Origin: an uncultured Holophagae bacterium | GTDB lineage: Bacteria; Acidobacteriota; Thermoanaerobaculia; Thermoanaerobaculales; Sulfomarinibacteraceae | DNA: 64,000 nt | Reading direction: 5' to 3' | NCBI GenBank assembly: GCA_963710645.1 | Contig: CAVQBD010000009.1 | Coordinates: forward strand, 1,551,199 to 1,615,198 | In this document: one piece after another, positions 4,493 through 59,842 of the stretch | Numbering within the stretch: position 1 is the stretch's first letter | Layout of the letters: each line of letters begins with the position of its first letter | Program-made: the position numbers and the translations under genes | The notes under the pieces: generated by a model | Told to the model about the DNA's origin: nothing | The model's database searches: none | Seen by the model: only the letters and a program-made list of their open reading frames with translations

Positions 4493-7192
4493 ATGACGTC
4501 ACATCGTTTCACCCGATACAGGACAGTCTCAACCTTCACACTCGTGATGGCTCTGGTGTCGATCACTGCGGTGGCGCAGGACGGGACCGGGGTCATCACC
4601 GGAACGGTGACTGGATCTGCGGGCAATGCCATTGAGAGCTGTCGGGTCACCATTGAGGACATGAACAGGGAAGCCACCACCGGGATGGACGGCACATACC
4701 GGTTGGCTCCGGTACCGGCAGGAGAGAGAACCCTGGTCTTCAGTTTTCTCGGGCTGCAACCGGGAACCGCCACGGTGACGGTTGTGGCGGGTGAGACCGT
4801 CAACCTGGACATGACCCTTCTCTACGGTGGTGAGATCGAGGTTCGTGGATCACCGTTGCTGGTCGGGCAGGCAAAAGCGCTCAACCAGCAAAAGAACGCC
4901 ATCAATATCTCGAACATCGTGGCCGCCGACCAGATCGGCCGCTTCCCCGACAAGAATGCCTCCGAGGCGACCCAGCGAGTGCCCGGTGTCAGTCTGGCGC
5001 GCGACATGGGTGAGGGCCGTTACGTCATCATCCGCGGCACCGAGGCCAGGCTCAACTCGACCACGGTCAACGGCGAGCGGATTCCGTCGCCGGAAGCGGG
5101 CGTCCGGAACGTCGCCCTCGACACCATCCCGGCTGATCTCCTGGGCTCGATCGTGGTTTCGAAGGCCCTGAGACCGGACATGGACGGCGACTCCATCGGC
5201 GGCACCGTCGATCTGGTGACCATGAGGGCTCCCGAAGAGACTCGGGTGTCGGCCGCCCTTGGTTTTGGCTACAGCGAGCTGATGGAAGAAACAGCCCCCA
5301 CCGGCACTGCCACCTTCGGGACTCGATTCGGACCCGATTCGAAGTGGGGTGTGCTGGTATCGGGAAGTTATAGCGACACCAAGCGTGGGGCCGACAACAT
5401 CGAGCCGGCGTACGACGACGGCGAACTCGAAGAACTCGAGATGCGCGATTACACCACCGAGCGTCAGCGGTCCGGCATCACAGCCGACCTCGACTACCGG
5501 GCAAACGCCCGCTCGAACTACTATCTCCGCGGTCTTTGGACCAACTACGTCGACGATGAAATCCGGCGCGCCAAGACCAACAAGGTTGCCGATGAGGAAC
5601 TCGAGCGATCGCTCAAGGACCGCAAGCAGGAGTCCTACATCAACTCCATTTCCTTCGGCGGCGAGAACAACATCGGTGAGGCCTTCGTCCTCGACTACCG
5701 CGTGATGTACAACAAATCACAAGAAGAAACCGACCACCAGTACACCTCGGCCTTCGAGATGGGAGACGTGATCTTTGATACCAACGTCAGTCCCGATTCC
5801 ATCGACCCGAACAACATTCAGGCCAATCCGCTAAACGAGGATCCCGCCGATTTCTGGTTCGCGGACATCGAGGACCTGAGCAAGCAAGCCCACGAGGAGG
5901 ACTTTGTCCTCGCCGCCAACCTCACCAAGGGCTTCTACAAAAACGCAGGTTTCAGCGGGCTTTGGAAGGTGGGCGCGAAGTACCGGACCAAGAACAAAGA
6001 CCAAAACTACGACGTCTACGACCTCGAGGCGGATGACGACTTGAACATGGTTCCGTTTCTGGACGACTGGAACTCCGAGACCCCGTTCTTCAACGGGATC
6101 TATGGTGATCAAATTTTCCCGTTCCAGGACCCCGATCTCATGAGGGAGCTCGGCGCGAGCGGGCTCCTGGAATCCGAGAGAAATCTGGAGGAGGATCTCG
6201 CCGACTTCGATATCACCGAGGACACCCTGGCCGCCTATGCCCTGGGCGAATTCCTCTTCGGCGCGAAATCCACCTTCATGGGTGGCGTTCGAGTGGAGAG
6301 CACGTCGGATGACTACATGGCCTACGAGCTGATCCTGGATGAAGAAGGAGACGCGGTGTCGCTGTTGCCGGTTTATGGCGACAAGAGTTGGACCGAGTGG
6401 CTGCCCCAGTTCCACTTCATCTACAAGACCGGAAACGACTCTCAGCTCCGCGCCGCCATCACCCGCAGTCTGGCCCGGCCAAACTTCGAGGACATGGCCC
6501 CGTGGCGGCTGACCAACCTGGAGGACCGTGAAGTCGAACTCGGCAATCCCGATCTGGATGTCACCACCGCCTGGAACCTCGATCTCATGTGGGAGAAGTA
6601 CCTGCAACCGGTGGGCATCCTCTCGGCTGGGGTCTTCTACAAAGACCTGACCGACTACATCTACATCTTCCAGGTCGATGACGTCATCGAAGGCGAAGAT
6701 GTGGAAATCACCCAGCCGCGAAACGGCGACAAGGGCACCTTGGCGGGCCTCGAGTTCGCCTTCCAAAACCAGTTCACAAACTGGGATGGATTCTGGGGAG
6801 GATTTGGTCTCTACCTCAACTACACCTACGTCGACTCCGACGCCAAGTACCCGGACCGTGAGTCTACCTCGCTGCCCGGGCAGTCGGAACACGTGGGCAA
6901 CCTCGCGCTGGTCTACGAGAAGTACGGCATCACCACCCGGCTGGCATACAACTACAACGGCAAACAGCTGATTGAGGTTGGCGGGGACGCCGACGAGGAT
7001 ATTTATGTCGACGACCACGGCCAGCTCGACTTCATGTTCCGTATCCAGGTCGCGAAGAGGTTCAGCATCATCGCCGAGATCATCAACATCACCGACGAGC
7101 CGTACACCGCCTATGAAGGCACCCCGGACCGGATCCGCCAGCAGGAGTACTACAGCTGGTGGGCGACGCTCGGCGTGAGGTTCGACCTTTAG
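4493..7192 (+). CDS. TonB-dependent outer-membrane receptor with N-terminal carboxypeptidase-regulatory-like domain
   Basis: 899 aa. Signal peptide, CarbopepD_reg-like GVITGTVTG...GTYRLAPVPAGERTLVFSFLG, plug region (NISNIVAADQIGRFPDKNASEA) and long beta-barrel ending ...TLGVRFDL. Strong SD GGAGAGGGAGG upstream. Confidence 0.9.
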   Translation: MTSHRFTRYRTVSTFTLVMALVSITAVAQDGTGVITGTVTGSAGNAIESCRVTIEDMNREATTGMDGTYRLAPVPAGERTLVFSFLGLQPGTATVTVVAGETVNLDMTLLYGGEIEVRGSPLLVGQAKALNQQKNAINISNIVAADQIGRFPDKNASEATQRVPGVSLARDMGEGRYVIIRGTEARLNSTTVNGERIPSPEAGVRNVALDTIPADLLGSIVVSKALRPDMDGDSIGGTVDLVTMRAPEETRVSAALGFGYSELMEETAPTGTATFGTRFGPDSKWGVLVSGSYSDTKRGADNIEPAYDDGELEELEMRDYTTERQRSGITADLDYRANARSNYYLRGLWTNYVDDEIRRAKTNKVADEELERSLKDRKQESYINSISFGGENNIGEAFVLDYRVMYNKSQEETDHQYTSAFEMGDVIFDTNVSPDSIDPNNIQANPLNEDPADFWFADIEDLSKQAHEEDFVLAANLTKGFYKNAGFSGLWKVGAKYRTKNKDQNYDVYDLEADDDLNMVPFLDDWNSETPFFNGIYGDQIFPFQDPDLMRELGASGLLESERNLEEDLADFDITEDTLAAYALGEFLFGAKSTFMGGVRVESTSDDYMAYELILDEEGDAVSLLPVYGDKSWTEWLPQFHFIYKTGNDSQLRAAITRSLARPNFEDMAPWRLTNLEDREVELGNPDLDVTTAWNLDLMWEKYLQPVGILSAGVFYKDLTDYIYIFQVDDVIEGEDVEITQPRNGDKGTLAGLEFAFQNQFTNWDGFWGGFGLYLNYTYVDSDAKYPDRESTSLPGQSEHVGNLALVYEKYGITTRLAYNYNGKQLIEVGGDADEDIYVDDHGQLDFMFRIQVAKRFSIIAEIINITDEPYTAYEGTPDRIRQQEYYSWWATLGVRFDL

Positions 7193-27734: not shown

Positions 27735-27740
27735 CAAAAA

Positions 27741-27855
27741 GTGAATAGTAAATAGTGAATAGTGAATAGTAAATAGACCGAGTTGGGGTCCCCACGCCCT
27801 TGCCGGACGGGAGGGGGCATATTCACTATTCACTATTTACTATTCACTTATTACT
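27741..27855. repeat. Pair of inverted heptamer arrays (GTGAATA/GTAAATA x5 and its complement x5) forming a perfect 27-bp inverted repeat
   Basis: 27741-27767 is the exact reverse complement of 27821-27847, checked base by base, with a 53-nt spacer. It lies between the convergent glpD and peroxiredoxin genes. The right arm contains the peroxiredoxin stop codon. Confidence 0.9.
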
Positions 27856-29505: not shown

Positions 29506-29597
29506 TGCAAGCCCCCAGAGATTTCAGAATTCGTGACAGCGGCAGAAACCAGGTTCAACCCGCCCCGCCGTGAATCTGGCGAGCACTATACCGTGTT

Positions 29598-29674
29598 CGG
29601 GACTCGGGACTCGGGACTCGGATGAAGCAGCCGCTCGTGCGCTCCGATCAACCGAATCCCGAGCCCTGAGCCCC
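29598..29674. repeat. Inverted heptamer arrays: CGGGACT x3.5 (29598-29622) and CCGAATC CCGAGCC CTGAGCC CC (29652-29674)
   Basis: Read directly. The two arms are about 19/23 complementary, including a G-U-compatible position. Confidence 0.75.
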
Positions 29675-31677: not shown

Positions 31678-31753
31678 GTGGAGCAGCGGGCAGTACCGCC
31701 CGCCCGGAATCGTACTGCCCACTTGACACGCGCCTTCTAATGGGTGGCAACCT

Positions 31754-31861
31754 GCCGGCGGCAGCGATTGTGGCCTGGGCCGGGAGGGATGTGGCGGGGG
31801 GTGACCCGGCCACTGGCCACTCGCTGGTGACGGCTGGTCACCGCGGCCGCAGGCCGCGAGT
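31754..31861. mobile_element. MITE-like GC-rich repeat, copy 1, flanked by 5-bp direct repeat AACCT
   Basis: It shares its termini with the copy at 52199-52320: GCCGGCGGCAGCGATYGTGGCC on the left and GGCCACTCGCTGGTGACGG...CCGCGGCC-loop-GGCCGCGAG on the right. AACCT occurs at 31749-31753 and 31862-31866. Confidence 0.5.
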
Positions 31862-31921
31862 AACCTCGGGGAGTGCCATCAGAATAGGGGCGCGATGAAA
31901 TCAGTGAATCGAAGCGAACGC
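31862..31921 (+). repeat. Partial, diverged copy of the 149-bp intergenic element (3' module)
   Basis: AACCTCGGGGAG...AAATCAGTGAATCGAAGCGAACGC aligns with 52053-52113 and with the reverse complement of 59700-59760. Confidence 0.6.
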
Positions 31922-32084
31922 TCGGGGAGCCTCCATCGCGCCCCGATTCTCATTGCGCCCCCCGTGAGGATGCCAGGCACGCCGATTCGCCCAATCGAGA
32001 CGGGTCATGTCTGCGGCCGCGGCGAATCGGGATGCCAGGCACCTCCGAGGGACGCGCCCTACGCTCCGGGTTGGCGGGGGACCC

Positions 32085-35933: not shown

Positions 35934-35978
35934 AGTAAATAATTTGCAATTTGCAATTTGCAATTTGCAATCTGTAAT
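35934..35978. repeat. Heptamer tandem array (AATTTGC x4 plus degenerate flanking units)
   Basis: Read directly. Lies between the convergent STAS gene and carB. Confidence 0.85.
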
Positions 35979-44065: not shown

Positions 44066-44078
44066 GGTGCCAGGCACC
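44066..44078. repeat. 13-bp perfect palindrome GGTGCCAGGCACC
   Basis: Read directly in the VOC/mscS intergenic region. The same 13-mer occurs at 54387-54399, and near-copies GGATGCCAGGCAC at 31968 and 32029. Confidence 0.7.
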
Positions 44079-50419: not shown

Positions 50420-51778
50420 ATGACCCGACCCTTCGAGCCCCCGAGCCGCGCTGAATTCGCCGCCATGCTTCGCCTGGCGGGGCCGGTGGTTGTGGTGCAG
50501 GTGGGTCTGATGCTCATGGGTGTGGTGGATATCATGGTGGTGGGGAGGGTATCGGCCAACGCCCTGGCGGCTGTCGCCCTGGGCCACGTGTCCGTCATGA
50601 CTATTGTGTCCTTCGGGCTGGGAACGCTCATGGTGGTGGATCCGCTGGTGTCCCAAGCTATCGGTGCCCGCGACCGTTTGGCGGTGCGGCGGACCTTTCA
50701 ACGGTGTCTCTTCATGACCGTCTTGATCGCCCTTCCAGCGATCGTTCTCTTGATCCCGGTGAAACCGGTGCTGGTGTTTCTCCGACAGCCTGTGGAGACG
50801 GTGCCCCTCGCCGCGGGCTATGTCCACCGTTGTCTGCCGGGGTTGTTGCCATTCTTCGGATTCATAGTGCTCCGCCAGACCCTGCAGGCCATGGAACGCA
50901 TGCGGCCCATCGTGCTGACCATTGTGGGGGCCAACGGATTGAATCTGTTGCTTGACCTCGCCCTGGTGCACGGCCGCTGGGGATTTCCGGCCCTCGGTCC
51001 ACTGGGATCGGCATGGGCCACCACCATCAGCCGACTCACTCTGTTTGTCGGACTGGCTTTCGCCGCCCGCCGGGATCTGGCGCCTCTTGTGGCACGTTTC
51101 GATCGAGAGGCCGTGAAGCTGATGCCCCTTCTGAGGACCCTCAAATTGGGGATCCCCATCGGTCTTCAGATTCAGCTCGAATTCACCTCTGTGAGCGCCA
51201 TCGCCCTGATGATGGGTGGTATGGGAGCCGTCACCATGGCCGCCCACCAGGTGGCCATCAATCTGGCGGCCCTCACCTTCATGGTGCCTCTGGGGGTGTC
51301 GGCCGCGTCGGCGATCCGCGTCGGACACGCTGTTGGTCGGAATGATCAGGGTGGAGTCCGCCGTGCGGCTTCGGCGGCGCTCATTTGCGGCGCCGGTTTC
51401 ATGACGTGCACTGCCGTCCTGTTCCTCCTCCTGCCCCGACAGCTGGCCTCGGCCTACACCCCGGAGGTCGAGGTGCTCGTGCTGGCCGCCTTGCTGATTC
51501 CCATCGCCGGCGTCTTCCAGATCTTCGACGGTCTGCAGATCGTGTCGGCCGGTATTTTACGTGGCCTCGGAGACACCCGTGCACCCATGCTGATCAATCT
51601 ATTCGGCTTCTGGCTGATCGGCATTCCGGTGAGCATCCTGTTGGCCTTCCGCCTCGGGCTGGGTCCCCAGGGTCTTTGGTGGGGCTTTGTGGTGGGCCTC
51701 GCGGTGGTGTCGACCATGCTGCTTCTGCGAATCGGCTCAAAGTTGTCGCGGCCGGTGGAGCGCGTCACCGTCGAGTGA
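50420..51778 (+). CDS. MATE-family efflux transporter
   Basis: 452 aa, 12-TM pattern, with internally duplicated MatE-like halves. Confidence 0.85.
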   Translation: MTRPFEPPSRAEFAAMLRLAGPVVVVQVGLMLMGVVDIMVVGRVSANALAAVALGHVSVMTIVSFGLGTLMVVDPLVSQAIGARDRLAVRRTFQRCLFMTVLIALPAIVLLIPVKPVLVFLRQPVETVPLAAGYVHRCLPGLLPFFGFIVLRQTLQAMERMRPIVLTIVGANGLNLLLDLALVHGRWGFPALGPLGSAWATTISRLTLFVGLAFAARRDLAPLVARFDREAVKLMPLLRTLKLGIPIGLQIQLEFTSVSAIALMMGGMGAVTMAAHQVAINLAALTFMVPLGVSAASAIRVGHAVGRNDQGGVRRAASAALICGAGFMTCTAVLFLLLPRQLASAYTPEVEVLVLAALLIPIAGVFQIFDGLQIVSAGILRGLGDTRAPMLINLFGFWLIGIPVSILLAFRLGLGPQGLWWGFVVGLAVVSTMLLLRIGSKLSRPVERVTVE

Positions 51779-51906
51779 ACCCCCTCCCGCCCGGTCGGGA
51801 ACAAGGAGCAAGGAACATCCCCCGCCCGCTCAGGCAGCAGGGAGTAGCCCCGCCCACCTGGAGTCTGGGGGCGCTTTGGGCGGGCTTGCCACTCCGGGTA
51901 CCTTCA

Positions 51907-51941
51907 AGTTGAACGTTAAACGTTGAATGTTCCCACCCACC
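51907..51941. repeat. Heptamer-periodic array AGTTGAA CGTTAAA CGTTGAA TGTTCCC ACCCACC
   Basis: Read directly. A related array, ..CAATTTT GAATGTT GAGTTTC CACCCAA, occurs at 57791-57818. Confidence 0.7.
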
Positions 51942-51970
51942 CTCCAGGATTGTGAGAGGCCGCGTTGATC

Positions 51971-52119
51971 GGGCGTGCCGTCTCCGACGATTTTAAGTTG
52001 GGGCCGAACCTCTATCGTGCCACGATGGGTCCCAAATATCGTCGGAGGGGGCAACCTCGGGGAGCGCGATTGGGAGATGCTTGCGTCGAAGTCAGCAAAT
52101 CGAAGCGAGCGCGCGGGCC
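51971..52119 (+). repeat. 149-bp conserved intergenic element, copy B (possible structured RNA or REP/BIME-like unit)
   Basis: Aligns without gaps to the reverse complement of 59694-59842, with about 121/149 identical by my hand count. Contains the 10-bp stem CTCCGACGAT (51982-51991) / ATCGTCGGAG (52038-52047). Confidence 0.8.
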
Positions 52120-52180
52120 GTGCCCAGGTTGTAGGCCCCGCACACCCGGGTTGACATGGAGGAGGGAAGACTGATCATTT

Positions 52181-52198
52181 TACTGCCTACTGCCAACT
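52181..52198. repeat. Heptamer array TACTGCC TACTGCC (left flank of MITE-like copy 2)
   Basis: Read directly. The same CTACTGC unit resumes at 52321-52348 and occurs again at 54481-54494. Confidence 0.75.
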
Positions 52199-52320
52199 CG
52201 CCGGCGGCAGCGATCGTGGCCGTGGCCGTGTGCGGTGACGCGAGACGCACAAGAAGGTGGACTGGCAGGCCTACGGCCACTCGCTGGTGACGGGGAGTCG
52301 CCGCGGCCATCGGCCGCGAG
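52199..52320. mobile_element. MITE-like GC-rich repeat, copy 2, flanked by 5-bp direct repeat CAACT and sitting inside a CTACTGC heptamer array
   Basis: Its termini match those of copy 1 (31754-31861). CAACT occurs at 52194-52198 and 52321-52325. Conserved hairpins: GGTGAC/GTCGCC (G-U-compatible change relative to copy 1) and CGCGGCC-ATC-GGCCGCG (loop GCA in copy 1). Confidence 0.5.
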
Positions 52321-52348
52321 CAACTGCCTACTGCCTACTGCCTACGAG
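52321..52348. repeat. Heptamer array CAACTGC CTACTGC CTACTGC CTACGAG
   Basis: Read directly, 67 nt upstream of acs. Confidence 0.8.
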
Positions 52349-52414
52349 ACAGCGACTCAAAATGGTCCCTGCTAAAGTAAGAGGCCACTGACCCCACAGC
52401 GAGAGGTATGGCCC

Positions 52415-55303: not shown

Positions 55304-55373
55304 CGGAGCCCCGAGCCCCGAGCCCCGAGCCCCGAGCCCCGAATTTCGAATTTCGAATTTCGAATTTCGAATT
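55304..55373. repeat. Two abutting in-register heptamer arrays: CCGAGCC x5, then TCGAATT x5
   Basis: 10 consecutive 7-nt units, read directly. The composition switches from GC-rich to AT-rich with no change of phase. Confidence 0.9.
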
Positions 55374-55387
55374 TTTCCATCATGAAC

Positions 55388-59693: not shown

Positions 59694-59842
59694 GGCCCTT
59701 GCGTTCGCTTCGATTCACTGACTTCGACGCGCCCATCTCCCAACCGTGCTCCCCGAGGGAGCCCCCTCTGACGATATTTGGTACTCGTCGCGGCAAGCTG
59801 CCTGTTCGACCTCAACCCAAAATCGTCAGAGACGGCACGCCC
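59694..59842 (-). repeat. 149-bp conserved intergenic element, copy C (inverted relative to copy B)
   Basis: Its reverse complement aligns to 51971-52119. The stem here is CTCTGACGAT (59766-59775) / ATCGTCAGAG (59822-59831), a compensatory C:G to T:A change relative to copy B. Confidence 0.8.

Follow-up and report, generated by a model that had tools for sequence, protein, structure and literature searches.

The ISCR elements and the Helitrons are relatives of the IS91 family of transposable elements (IS91, IS801, and IS1294). Here, we compare with these and other described systems a short noncoding element present twice in a 64,000-nucleotide stretch of DNA from an uncultured Holophagae bacterium (contig CAVQBD010000009.1), referred to throughout as the window. 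Transposition in the IS91 family produces no target site duplication (TSD), and a GAAC/CAAG-like target, read in the sense of the transferred strand, adjoins the palindromes of oriIS (PMC13181058, PMC3189936); for IS801, the targets are GAAC, GGAC, CAAG, and CGAC (PMC3189936). The opposite end, terIS, is a GC-rich palindrome beside a similar cleavage tetranucleotide (PMC13181058). One-ended read-through is frequent, and miniature derivatives of 229 to 679 nt are mobile in trans (PMC13181058, PMC3189936). In the IS200/IS605 family, cleavage sites are read by pairing with a short guide 5' of the hairpin foot (PMC6006769). Also, class 3 TnpA-Y1 genes occur with high-copy hairpins in Acidobacteria and Planctomycetes, with ~600 hairpins per genome in Acidobacteria (PMC6006769).

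The element described here is mobile, non-autonomous, and gene-less, and it is widespread in Acidobacteriota. Of the published descriptions, that of the IS91 family comes nearest: the element has neither a TSD nor real terminal inverted repeats, a tetranucleotide abuts the hairpin of its presumed origin end, a GC-rich palindrome and a similar tetranucleotide make up its other end, and flanking DNA may be captured by read-through, in units of 148 to 264 bp that end at a tRNA GAAC. Unlike IS91-family members, it is far smaller (113 to 127 nt), has no linked Y2 transposase in the window or the locus flanks, and is hosted by Acidobacteriota, and its presumed origin side takes the form of a single long, conserved hairpin that draws two bases of the target tetranucleotide into its base. 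With IS200/IS605 elements and the palindrome-associated transposable elements (PATEs), it appears to share a single-strand logic, along with the lack of TSDs and inverted repeats and a target tetra- or pentanucleotide 5' of the left end; as in IS200/IS605, a subterminal hairpin and then a similar short motif close the right end. A further parallel may lie in the guide: the AC of the flank pairs with an internal GT, which precedes the small hairpin by 3 nt on its 5' side, and this pairing shows compensatory changes. Unlike in IS200/IS605, where the left and right hairpins are alike and ~20 to 25 nt long, the two hairpins here are dissimilar, a single internal GT could serve both ends, and no TnpA with these ends was found in the window or the locus flanks.

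A comparison can also be made with the REPIN/RAYT systems, built from repetitive extragenic palindromic (REP) sequences and REP-associated tyrosine transposases (RAYTs). These likewise feature intergenic hairpins of ~100 nt made of two inverted conserved arms, a trans-acting enzyme, hundreds of copies, and long persistence in a lineage. However, the element lacks the GT[AG]G or CnGA foot, the RAYT-like genes seen in these taxa (loci L136 and L171 to L178) are flanked by a different repeat, GTGCCAGGYAC, and REPINs have no defined SAAC target or 3' tail. Judged by these analogies, the architecture is that of TSD-less, tetranucleotide-targeting single-strand transposons and not that of a classical DDE-derived miniature inverted-repeat transposable element (MITE). 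The explanation that we favor, and to which we would give about an even chance of being correct, is a non-autonomous single-strand element mobilized in trans by an HUH-type (tyrosine) transposase and built like members of the IS91 family or IS200/IS605.

A first-pass annotation of the window had reported two copies with shared conserved stretches, and this was borne out. The left motif GCCGGCGGCAGCGATYGTGGCC has exactly two matches in the window, at 31754 and 52200, as does the right motif GGCCACTCGCTGGTGACGG, at 31815 and 52275, all on the + strand; 0.01 and 0.06 matches, respectively, were expected by chance, and two matches were seen in 0 of 100 shuffles. A profile hidden Markov model built from 27 relatives found these two copies only, with E values of 2e-19 and 4.5e-14. 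Because of the family data described below, we place the boundaries at 31752 to 31864 for copy 1 (113 nt) and 52198 to 52324 for copy 2 (127 nt), both on the + strand and each directly 3' of a CAAC (31748 to 31751 and 52194 to 52197).

To sample the family, a genome scan was run with a 19-mer, which returned 48 loci, 20 of them true copies and the others chance matches in coding sequence. The 20 copies belong to metagenome-assembled genomes (MAGs) of Holophagae, Candidatus Sulfomarinibacteraceae, and Thermoanaerobaculia/Thermoanaerobaculales. A metagenome scan that required both arms gave at least 120 loci. Once coding-sequence matches and duplicates had been dropped, the sample comprised 87 non-identical copies in 79 flank contexts, drawn from Holophagae, Thermoanaerobaculia, and Sulfomarinibacteraceae MAGs and from metagenomes (loci are cited below by L number). 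Known RNA families and other replicons offered no counterpart. There were 0 Rfam matches in the window at gathering thresholds, and relaxing the E value to 10 or 1 turned up nothing relevant near the copies or in eight related loci; a viral contig collection had 0 matches to the element, and a distant blastn search of a plasmid collection returned nothing similar. ARAGORN did not score the element itself as tRNA-like, detecting only genuine neighboring tRNAs. Just upstream of one copy, locus L029 carries two sub-threshold matches to the Rfam family Acido-Lenti-1 (5698 to 5725 on the + strand and 5948 to 5991 on the - strand), which score 28.6 and 25.7 bits (gathering score, 37).

The conserved stretches had been taken for separate left and right ends. 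Their conservation stands, but they are not separate ends: each arm is an imperfect inverted repeat of the other, the pair folding into a single long hairpin with a second, small hairpin 3' of it. From 5' to 3', the family anatomy is two variable bases, the long imperfect hairpin, an xGT trinucleotide, a short GC-rich hairpin, and the tail NG(T/C)AA(C/G), and the consensus arms of the long hairpin read GCCGNCGG-CAGCGA-bulge-GTGGCC ... GGCCAC-TCGCTG-G-YGRCGG. RNAalifold, applied to 27 diverse copies, returned 34 consensus pairs, 17 of which showed compensatory double changes. The long hairpin begins outside the element proper, at the second A of the flanking NAAC, where A-C-x pairs with x'-G-T located 16 to 18 nt after TCGCTG (alignment columns 3 to 5 with columns 91 to 93). 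Across the 87 copies, pair L2-R18 is AT in 72 and TA in 10, pair L3-R17 is CG in 81 and TA in 4, and pair L4-R16 is CG in 25, TA in 24, and GC in 5, compared to a shuffle mean of 38.8 paired. The first A of the flanking NAAC stands opposite a C in 77 of 87 copies and is unpaired. Wobble pairs in the long stem were strongly asymmetric between strands (121 G:T versus 10 A:C), and it is therefore the + strand that folds, either as single-stranded DNA or as RNA. Across the family, CAGCGA and GTGG do not vary, and the near-invariance of the arm sequence is partly a matter of ascertainment, as the arms served as the search query.

The centers of the two window copies, described in the annotation as unrelated, instead proved to be the distal stem and G-rich loop of two classes, with centers of 47 and 61 nt, each of which has relatives elsewhere. 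The distal-stem pairs of the 47-nt class covary (e.g., GC in 15 and AU in 12), and the long hairpin ends in a G-rich, semi-conserved tip. For the small 3' hairpin, structure is kept while sequence is free, with 6 of its 7 pairs (columns 97 to 113) showing compensatory changes. No T run follows either hairpin, and the element is thus not an intrinsic terminator. The loop of the 47-nt class (window 31783 to 31806; columns 38 to 60 of alignment A2) is purine- and G-rich, with the semi-conserved pattern GGAAnGGnAGGGTGGnTGGnGG, and may be a protein-binding or G-quadruplex-prone segment. In the longer-center class, there is a conserved internal hairpin flanked by GGGGnTCGCA and GGAGAGGGGG.

Mapped onto the window (+ strand throughout), copy 1 consists of the bases CT, the long hairpin, the small hairpin, and the tail, and sits within a host repeat that reads GGGTGGCAAC before the junction and CTCGGGGAG after it. 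Its left arm, GCCGGCGG-CAGCGA-TT-GTGGCC (31754 to 31775), and right arm, GGCCAC-TCGCTG-GT-GACGGC (31815 to 31834), are the 5' and 3' strands of the long hairpin. Between them lie the distal stem and G-rich loop (31776 to 31814), assigned to the 47-nt class by the consensus fold of alignment A2. The internal GGT that follows (31836 to 31838), in which the first G pairs with the element's first base and GT with the AC of the CAAC flank, is a putative guide-like segment. The small GC-rich hairpin, CGCGGCC-GCA-GGCCGCG (31842 to 31858), and the tail AGTAAC (31859 to 31864), which supplies the element's own terminal AAC, complete the copy. Copy 2 belongs to the 61-nt-center subfamily, whose 3' end is always GAGCAAC. 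Motif matches and the fold place its arms at 52200 to 52221 and 52275 to 52294, and its internal GAGT (52295 to 52298) is predicted to pair with ACTC, of which AC comes from the CAAC flank and TC from the element itself, as its first two bases. Its small hairpin, CGCGGCC-ATC-GGCCGCG, occupies 52302 to 52318 and its tail, AGCAAC, occupies 52319 to 52324.

As annotated, AACCT brackets copy 1 on both sides and CAACT brackets copy 2. Deleting copy 1 together with one AACCT does restore GGGTGGCAACCTCGGGGAG, which matches the uninterrupted GGGGGCAACCTCGGGGAG at 52047 to 52064, confirming that copy 1 is nested in a member of the 149-bp repeat family, and copy 2 does interrupt a CTACTGC heptamer array, with the phase of the array kept. 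These direct repeats had been interpreted as 5-bp TSDs. Over the 79 contexts, however, the only invariant part of the flank is AA(C). The left flank is NAAC in 60 of the 79 (GAAC in 28, CAAC in 26, AAAC in 4, and TAAC in 2), and most exceptions are variants derived from tRNA T-loops (GATT and GCAC, for instance). At the fixed position +32 to +37 after TCGCTGG, 41 of 75 contexts have the 3' end NG(T/C)AA(C/G), and further contexts fit this rule with a 1-nt shift or a nested insert. Identity between left and right flanks ranges from AA, in copies ending in GTAAG, to the 7 nt CTGAACT in L004; thus, there is no duplication of fixed length.

Next to the left AAC come two bases (xy; CC, TC, CT, and GT are among the forms found) that are counted as part of the element, since they covary with a position inside it. 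In many copies, these bases are unlike those of the right flank. At L057 and L119, GAAC is followed by TC on the left and GTAAC by CCCGGGG on the right, and this CCCGGGG completes a perfect target hairpin, CCCGGGG-cgtgaa-CCCCGGG. From these flank rules it follows that an insertion consists of the target's NAAC, the element from xy to NGTAAS, and the rest of the target, with nothing duplicated. Read in this way from the sequence, the AACCT repeat is the AAC of the target matched with the AAC of the element, plus a CT that is the element's first two bases on one side and the host repeat's next two on the other; the CAACT repeat is likewise AAC plus one matching base on each side. The C that precedes the right-hand AAC is fixed in the GAGCAAC-ending subfamily (L059, L113, L141, L155, and L168). 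Also, terminal inverted repeats are absent from the family, whose ends read xyGCCG... and ...NGTAAC and whose inverted repeats are internal; the imperfect terminal inverted repeat proposed for the window copies (CTCGCCGGC and CTCGCGGCC) occurs in copy 2 only, borrows bases from the flank, and is not a family feature. Of the earlier MITE-like description, then, the small size, lack of genes, nesting, and many copies hold up, and the terminal inverted repeats and fixed-length TSDs do not. When other copies are tabulated with their flanks, sharp ends recur in many contexts, with flank identity of 2 to 7 nt in place of a fixed duplication.

Several comparisons bear on mobility. Near-identical copies with sharp ends are found in unrelated contexts. 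Copy 1 is 95 to 98% identical to at least six copies of one Holophagae MAG (L002, L016, L019, L024, L044, and L045), which always stand in the context GG(G/T)GGCAACCT-element-(A/C)ACCTCGGGGAGCGC, and the relatives of copy 2 in the 61-nt-center subfamily are L059, L113, L141, L155, and L168. Filled and empty versions of the same site exist in paralogous repeats, namely the 149-bp repeat and REP-like hairpins, and one site of the 149-bp repeat is occupied by two different subfamilies (L016 versus L025). The chimeric flanks of L155 suggest recombination between copies.

Empty sites in relatives had been named as a check, and the outcome differed between the two copies. Copy 2 lies in a kynureninase-hydrolase-AsnC-MatE-acs-channel locus, and the syntenic loci L179, L180, and L183 lack the element; it is also missing from L181 and L182, where only acs and the channel gene are shared. 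The relatives without copy 2 (four syntenic MatE-acs loci) show 89 to 92% Acs identity. Conservation extends over the 70 nt nearest acs, and L183 retains a short CTGCCTA-type array, without an element, at the spot of copy 2. This is a presence/absence difference and not a base-exact empty site. The MatE-acs spacer measures 639 nt in the window (51776 to 52414) versus 235 nt in L179 (2766 to 3000) and 184 nt in L180 (2817 to 3000), the excess being made up of repeat modules: a GTTGAACGTT array, a CTCCGACGAT...ATCGTCGGAG palindrome (51975 to 52046), a 149-bp repeat, and the heptamer array that copy 2 interrupts. At the copy 1 locus, L049 is the closest relative, with ~85% nucleotide identity in both flanking genes; its intergenic region is rearranged, and a clean empty-site comparison is therefore not available at this locus.

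The targets are repeat modules, the loops of REP-like hairpins, heptamer arrays, and the antisense T-loops of tRNA genes. The 5' part of the 149-bp repeat is one such target. Another is the loop of REP-like hairpins, of which empty versions, e.g., GGCGGGTC-GTAAAA-GACCCGCC-TACAAG, are present in the same MAG. Heptamer arrays that contain CAAC or GAAC are occupied at window copy 2 and in L141, L168, L063, and L116, with CAACTGC-type arrays in L141 and L168 hosting the same subfamily as copy 2. The 3'-end pieces of tRNA genes are entered in antisense, with the T-loop reading ...TTCGAAC, in L059, L072, L091, and others.

Two arrangements of copies were informative as well. In the head-to-tail arrays of L084 (3 x 113 bp) and L124, adjacent units have a single GTAACC(C/T) in common, and one AAC between units is what would be expected if the element's terminal AAC were itself a target. 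Intact genes for tRNA-Leu, tRNA-Arg, and tRNA-Phe have the element beside them in antisense orientation, in units of 148 to 264 bp, each of which ends at a partial tRNA 3' end starting from the T-loop (antisense GAAC; L017, L022, L030, and L047), and tRNA-linked units including L017, L030, L047, and L059 carry a spare tRNA 3' piece. By analogy with one-ended transposition of IS91 and IS801, these units fit read-through as far as the following tetranucleotide; an integrase model accounts for them just as well.

Under the favored explanation, the element would move as single-stranded DNA with an enzyme supplied in trans and would insert immediately 3' of a target (G/C)AAC, with nothing being duplicated. 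The long hairpin would be the transposase-binding origin end, and the small GC-rich hairpin with its tail NG(T/C)AA(C/G) would be the terminus end. The AC of the target tetranucleotide and the element's first base would pair with the internal xGT, which can also pair with the element's own terminal AAC. As xGT can pair with either AAC, both sites of cleavage may be presented by a single guide-like segment. The anatomy, the flank rules, the strand asymmetry, and the presence/absence difference at a syntenic locus are observations; the class of enzyme, the positions of cleavage, and the single-stranded intermediate are what we infer. A broader proposal takes the copies for members of an ancient and hitherto undescribed Acidobacteriota family of miniature single-strand (HUH-type) transposons, in which one element-encoded trinucleotide would read both cleavage sites by pairing, exposed hairpin loops (REP-like loops and antisense tRNA T-loops) would be preferred, hits in tRNA genes would be survived by way of a captured replacement tRNA 3' half, and arms would be kept near-invariant across bacterial classes by a possibly domesticated enzyme. 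As a whole, we consider this broader proposal possible but doubtful.

A number of observations weigh against mobilization by an HUH-type enzyme, beginning with the search for the enzyme itself, which covered the window and ~1.1 Mb of flanks around 92 family loci. In agreement with the earlier annotation, no transposase was seen in the window among the top 25 families listed in per-member scans or with a Y1-motif regular expression. Neither an HUH gene with these ends, including a Y2 transposase bounded by them, nor a recurrent recombinase was found in the flanks. A Pfam scan of 116 open reading frames (ORFs) from 20 loci gave no enriched mobile-element family, only housekeeping or common paralogue families, and all-against-all clustering of 2,278 ORFs from the 92 loci gave only housekeeping genes and common paralogues, such as Ser/Thr kinases with TPR repeats. 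The Y1-motif expression retrieved a single RAYT-like gene over the ~1.1 Mb, in L136. It was rejected as a partner, as L136 and eight homologous loci are bracketed by the other repeat, GTGCCAGGYAC, and not by this hairpin. The class 3 Y1 genes of Acidobacteria, with their hundreds of unusual hairpins (PMC6006769), are a possible lead to the enzyme.

The element's own features add to these difficulties. The proposed left cleavage point lies within a base-paired stretch, unlike classical nick sites, which lie in loops, and the dissimilar hairpins, noted above, depart from the similar ones carried by IS200/IS605 ends. About 8 of 34 independent sites match two further bases past AAC, compared to ~2 expected by a rough estimate; targets that look like the left junction of the element may be somewhat preferred, or these excess matches could reflect the short homology requirement of a recombinase. 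The AAC falls in a hairpin loop at 12 of the 34 independent sites versus a control mean of 8.3 (p ~0.07), and mean folding energy did not differ between reconstructed empty sites and mismatched flank pairs; a preference for hairpin-loop targets is no more than suggestive. Also, there was no orientation bias relative to neighboring genes (55 co-oriented and 53 opposed).

Four rival explanations were weighed. A tyrosine recombinase acting on a folded-DNA site, either integron attC-like or a tRNA-targeting integrase working in trans, would place the crossover at AAC, take the short identity of the flanks for the shared core, and make the tRNA units attL and attR. The strand-specific hairpin has an asymmetric bulge, AAC at its 5' base, and AC paired with GT; like attC sites, it is imperfect, with a conserved AAC at its base and a variable length and tip, and its arrays, like attC arrays, are tandem units separated by a single AAC-containing core (L084 and L124), tRNA 3' ends are duplicated from the T-loop on in L017, L030, L047, and L059, and matches beyond AAC are in excess. 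However, many sites share AA or AAC only and most share 2 to 5 nt, whereas the usual overlap is 6 to 8 bp, and an identity block of at least 6 to 8 bp is seen at tRNA-linked copies only. The R-box consensus RYYYAAC/GTTRRRY is unmatched, with the bases outside AAC unpaired and only AC:GT pairing; there is no R/L box consensus, there are no cassette ORFs, and no integrase or integron platform was found beside the arrays, which are flanked by ordinary genes, or adjoining the tRNA-linked copies. Elements are also dispersed singly in REP-like loops, repeats, and tRNA T-loops, and the small 3' hairpin and fixed tail would be left without a role. We regard a recombinase of this kind as unlikely. A non-autonomous derivative of the IS110/IS1111 type, with the hairpin serving as a bridge RNA-like guide and the flanking repeat as the recombination core, is in our view very improbable. 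IS110/IS1111 elements insert in REP sequences and other repeats, have no inverted repeats, and leave short core repeats, and part of the flank does pair with an internal segment. Nevertheless, the targets share SAAC only, with no sign of a programmed recognition of 10 to 14 nt, the variable center shows by inspection no complementarity to the flanks, and no DEDD recombinase was found nearby.

Two alternatives remain. A classical DDE-derived MITE with 5-bp TSDs and a preference for AAC-containing sites would account for the 5-bp direct repeats at both window copies and at the copies embedded in the 149-bp repeat, and for the restoration of known sequence when the element and one repeat are deleted. 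The flank statistics largely refute it, and we give it very little credence: flank identity runs from 2 to 7 nt without terminal inverted repeats, the bases after the left AAC covary internally and are often unlike the right flank (L057, L119, L059, L113, and L155), and the right-hand AAC/AAG keeps a fixed position in the element even where the left flank differs. It is also conceivable, though rather improbable, that this is a non-mobile structured repeat, such as a REP-like DNA hairpin or a small RNA gene, spread by recombination or duplication together with neighboring modules. Such a repeat would fit the strong structural conservation on one strand, the avoidance of divergent promoter regions (3 of 35 two-sided contexts), the usual embedding of copies in other repeats, and the chimeric flanks of L155. 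It fits poorly with sharp, identical ends in dozens of unrelated contexts, sites both filled and empty in paralogous repeats, syntenic loci without the element, two subfamilies at the same 149-bp-repeat site (L025 versus L016), and the lack of an Rfam family and of a terminator-like T run.

Other repeats accompany the element. The 149-bp repeat occurs in the window at 31742 to 31751 plus 31865 to 31926 (interrupted by copy 1; the remainder beyond copy 1, on the + strand, is 74% identical to 52053 to 52117), at 52047 to 52117, and on the - strand at 59759 and 44142. It starts GGGGGC(AA or TC)CCTCGGGGAGCGC, its conserved core ends ...GAATCGAAGCGAAC, and it is the CAAC version that hosts the hairpin element. 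Its core opens with CT immediately behind CAAC and closes with GAAC, and this repeat, too, may thus obey the tetranucleotide rule. A mini-hairpin of ~37 nt (GGCTTGTCACGGCGAAGCCCGAAGGGCGGAGCCGGAA) in turn sits in the loop of the element's small 3' hairpin in L002 (5950 to 6000), L024, L044, L082, and L098, with variants in L063 and L116, so that there are three levels of nesting, with the mini-hairpin inside the element and the element inside the 149-bp repeat. The CTACTGC array split by copy 2 spans 52180 to 52345 on the + strand (parts 52180 to 52197 and 52325 to 52345), and the target CAAC of that copy belongs to a variant unit, CAACTGC. Heptamer arrays are common between genes in the window, with units AAATAGT, TATTCAC, TCGGGAC, AATTTGC, CTACTGC, GAGCCCC, and CGAATTT at 27736 to 27776, 27820 to 27848, 29597 to 29621, 35941 to 35971, 52180 to 52345, ~54480, 55306 to 55342, and 55340 to 55374, and relatives have other heptamers (AATTCGC, AATTACG, CAGACTG, and GTTGAAC) at the same kinds of places.

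The repeat that brackets the RAYT-like genes is also a neighbor of the element. A palindromic doublet of ~110 bp with the REP-like motif (G/A)TGCCAGGYAC adjoins copy 1 at 31950 to 32060 (motif at 31970 and 32032), and the motif recurs in the window at 44067 and 54388. Inverted copies of ~24 nt (GTGCCAGGTACGGTGGTTGATGTT...) bracket every RAYT-like Y1_Tnp gene examined (L136 and L171 to L178). The encoded proteins are ~330 aa long with NHYH and YIHLNP motifs, and some have a DnaA_C-like C terminus. Judging from these sequence features, the GTGCCAGGYAC repeat and the Y1_Tnp genes look like a separate REP/RAYT system of these bacteria. Two RAYT-like paralogues (L171, 3001 to 3999 and 5978 to 6976) lie 2 kb apart on one 1.3-Mb Sulfomarinibacteraceae contig; RAYTs are usually single copy, which makes this pair unusual.

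Taken together, the family flanks correct a tempting misreading, as a small element can be bracketed by short direct repeats that are no target duplications; here, they follow a fixed tetranucleotide rule. The element and its companion repeats inflate intergenic regions (639 nt versus 184 to 235 nt between MatE and acs) and will confuse MAG assembly and annotation. By analogy, the element adds a variant to the class of tetranucleotide-targeting, hairpin-ended, TSD-less elements, a class that is itself already known. The tRNA-linked units suggest a route to the capture and replacement of tRNA 3' halves. If the HUH reading is true, the element would be a very abundant and compact (~115 nt) substrate for learning how single-strand transposases read their cleavage sites, one that offers natural covariation data and a clear target motif, and miniature elements of the IS91- or IS200-like kind would then be known from Acidobacteriota too, in which mobile DNA has been little described.

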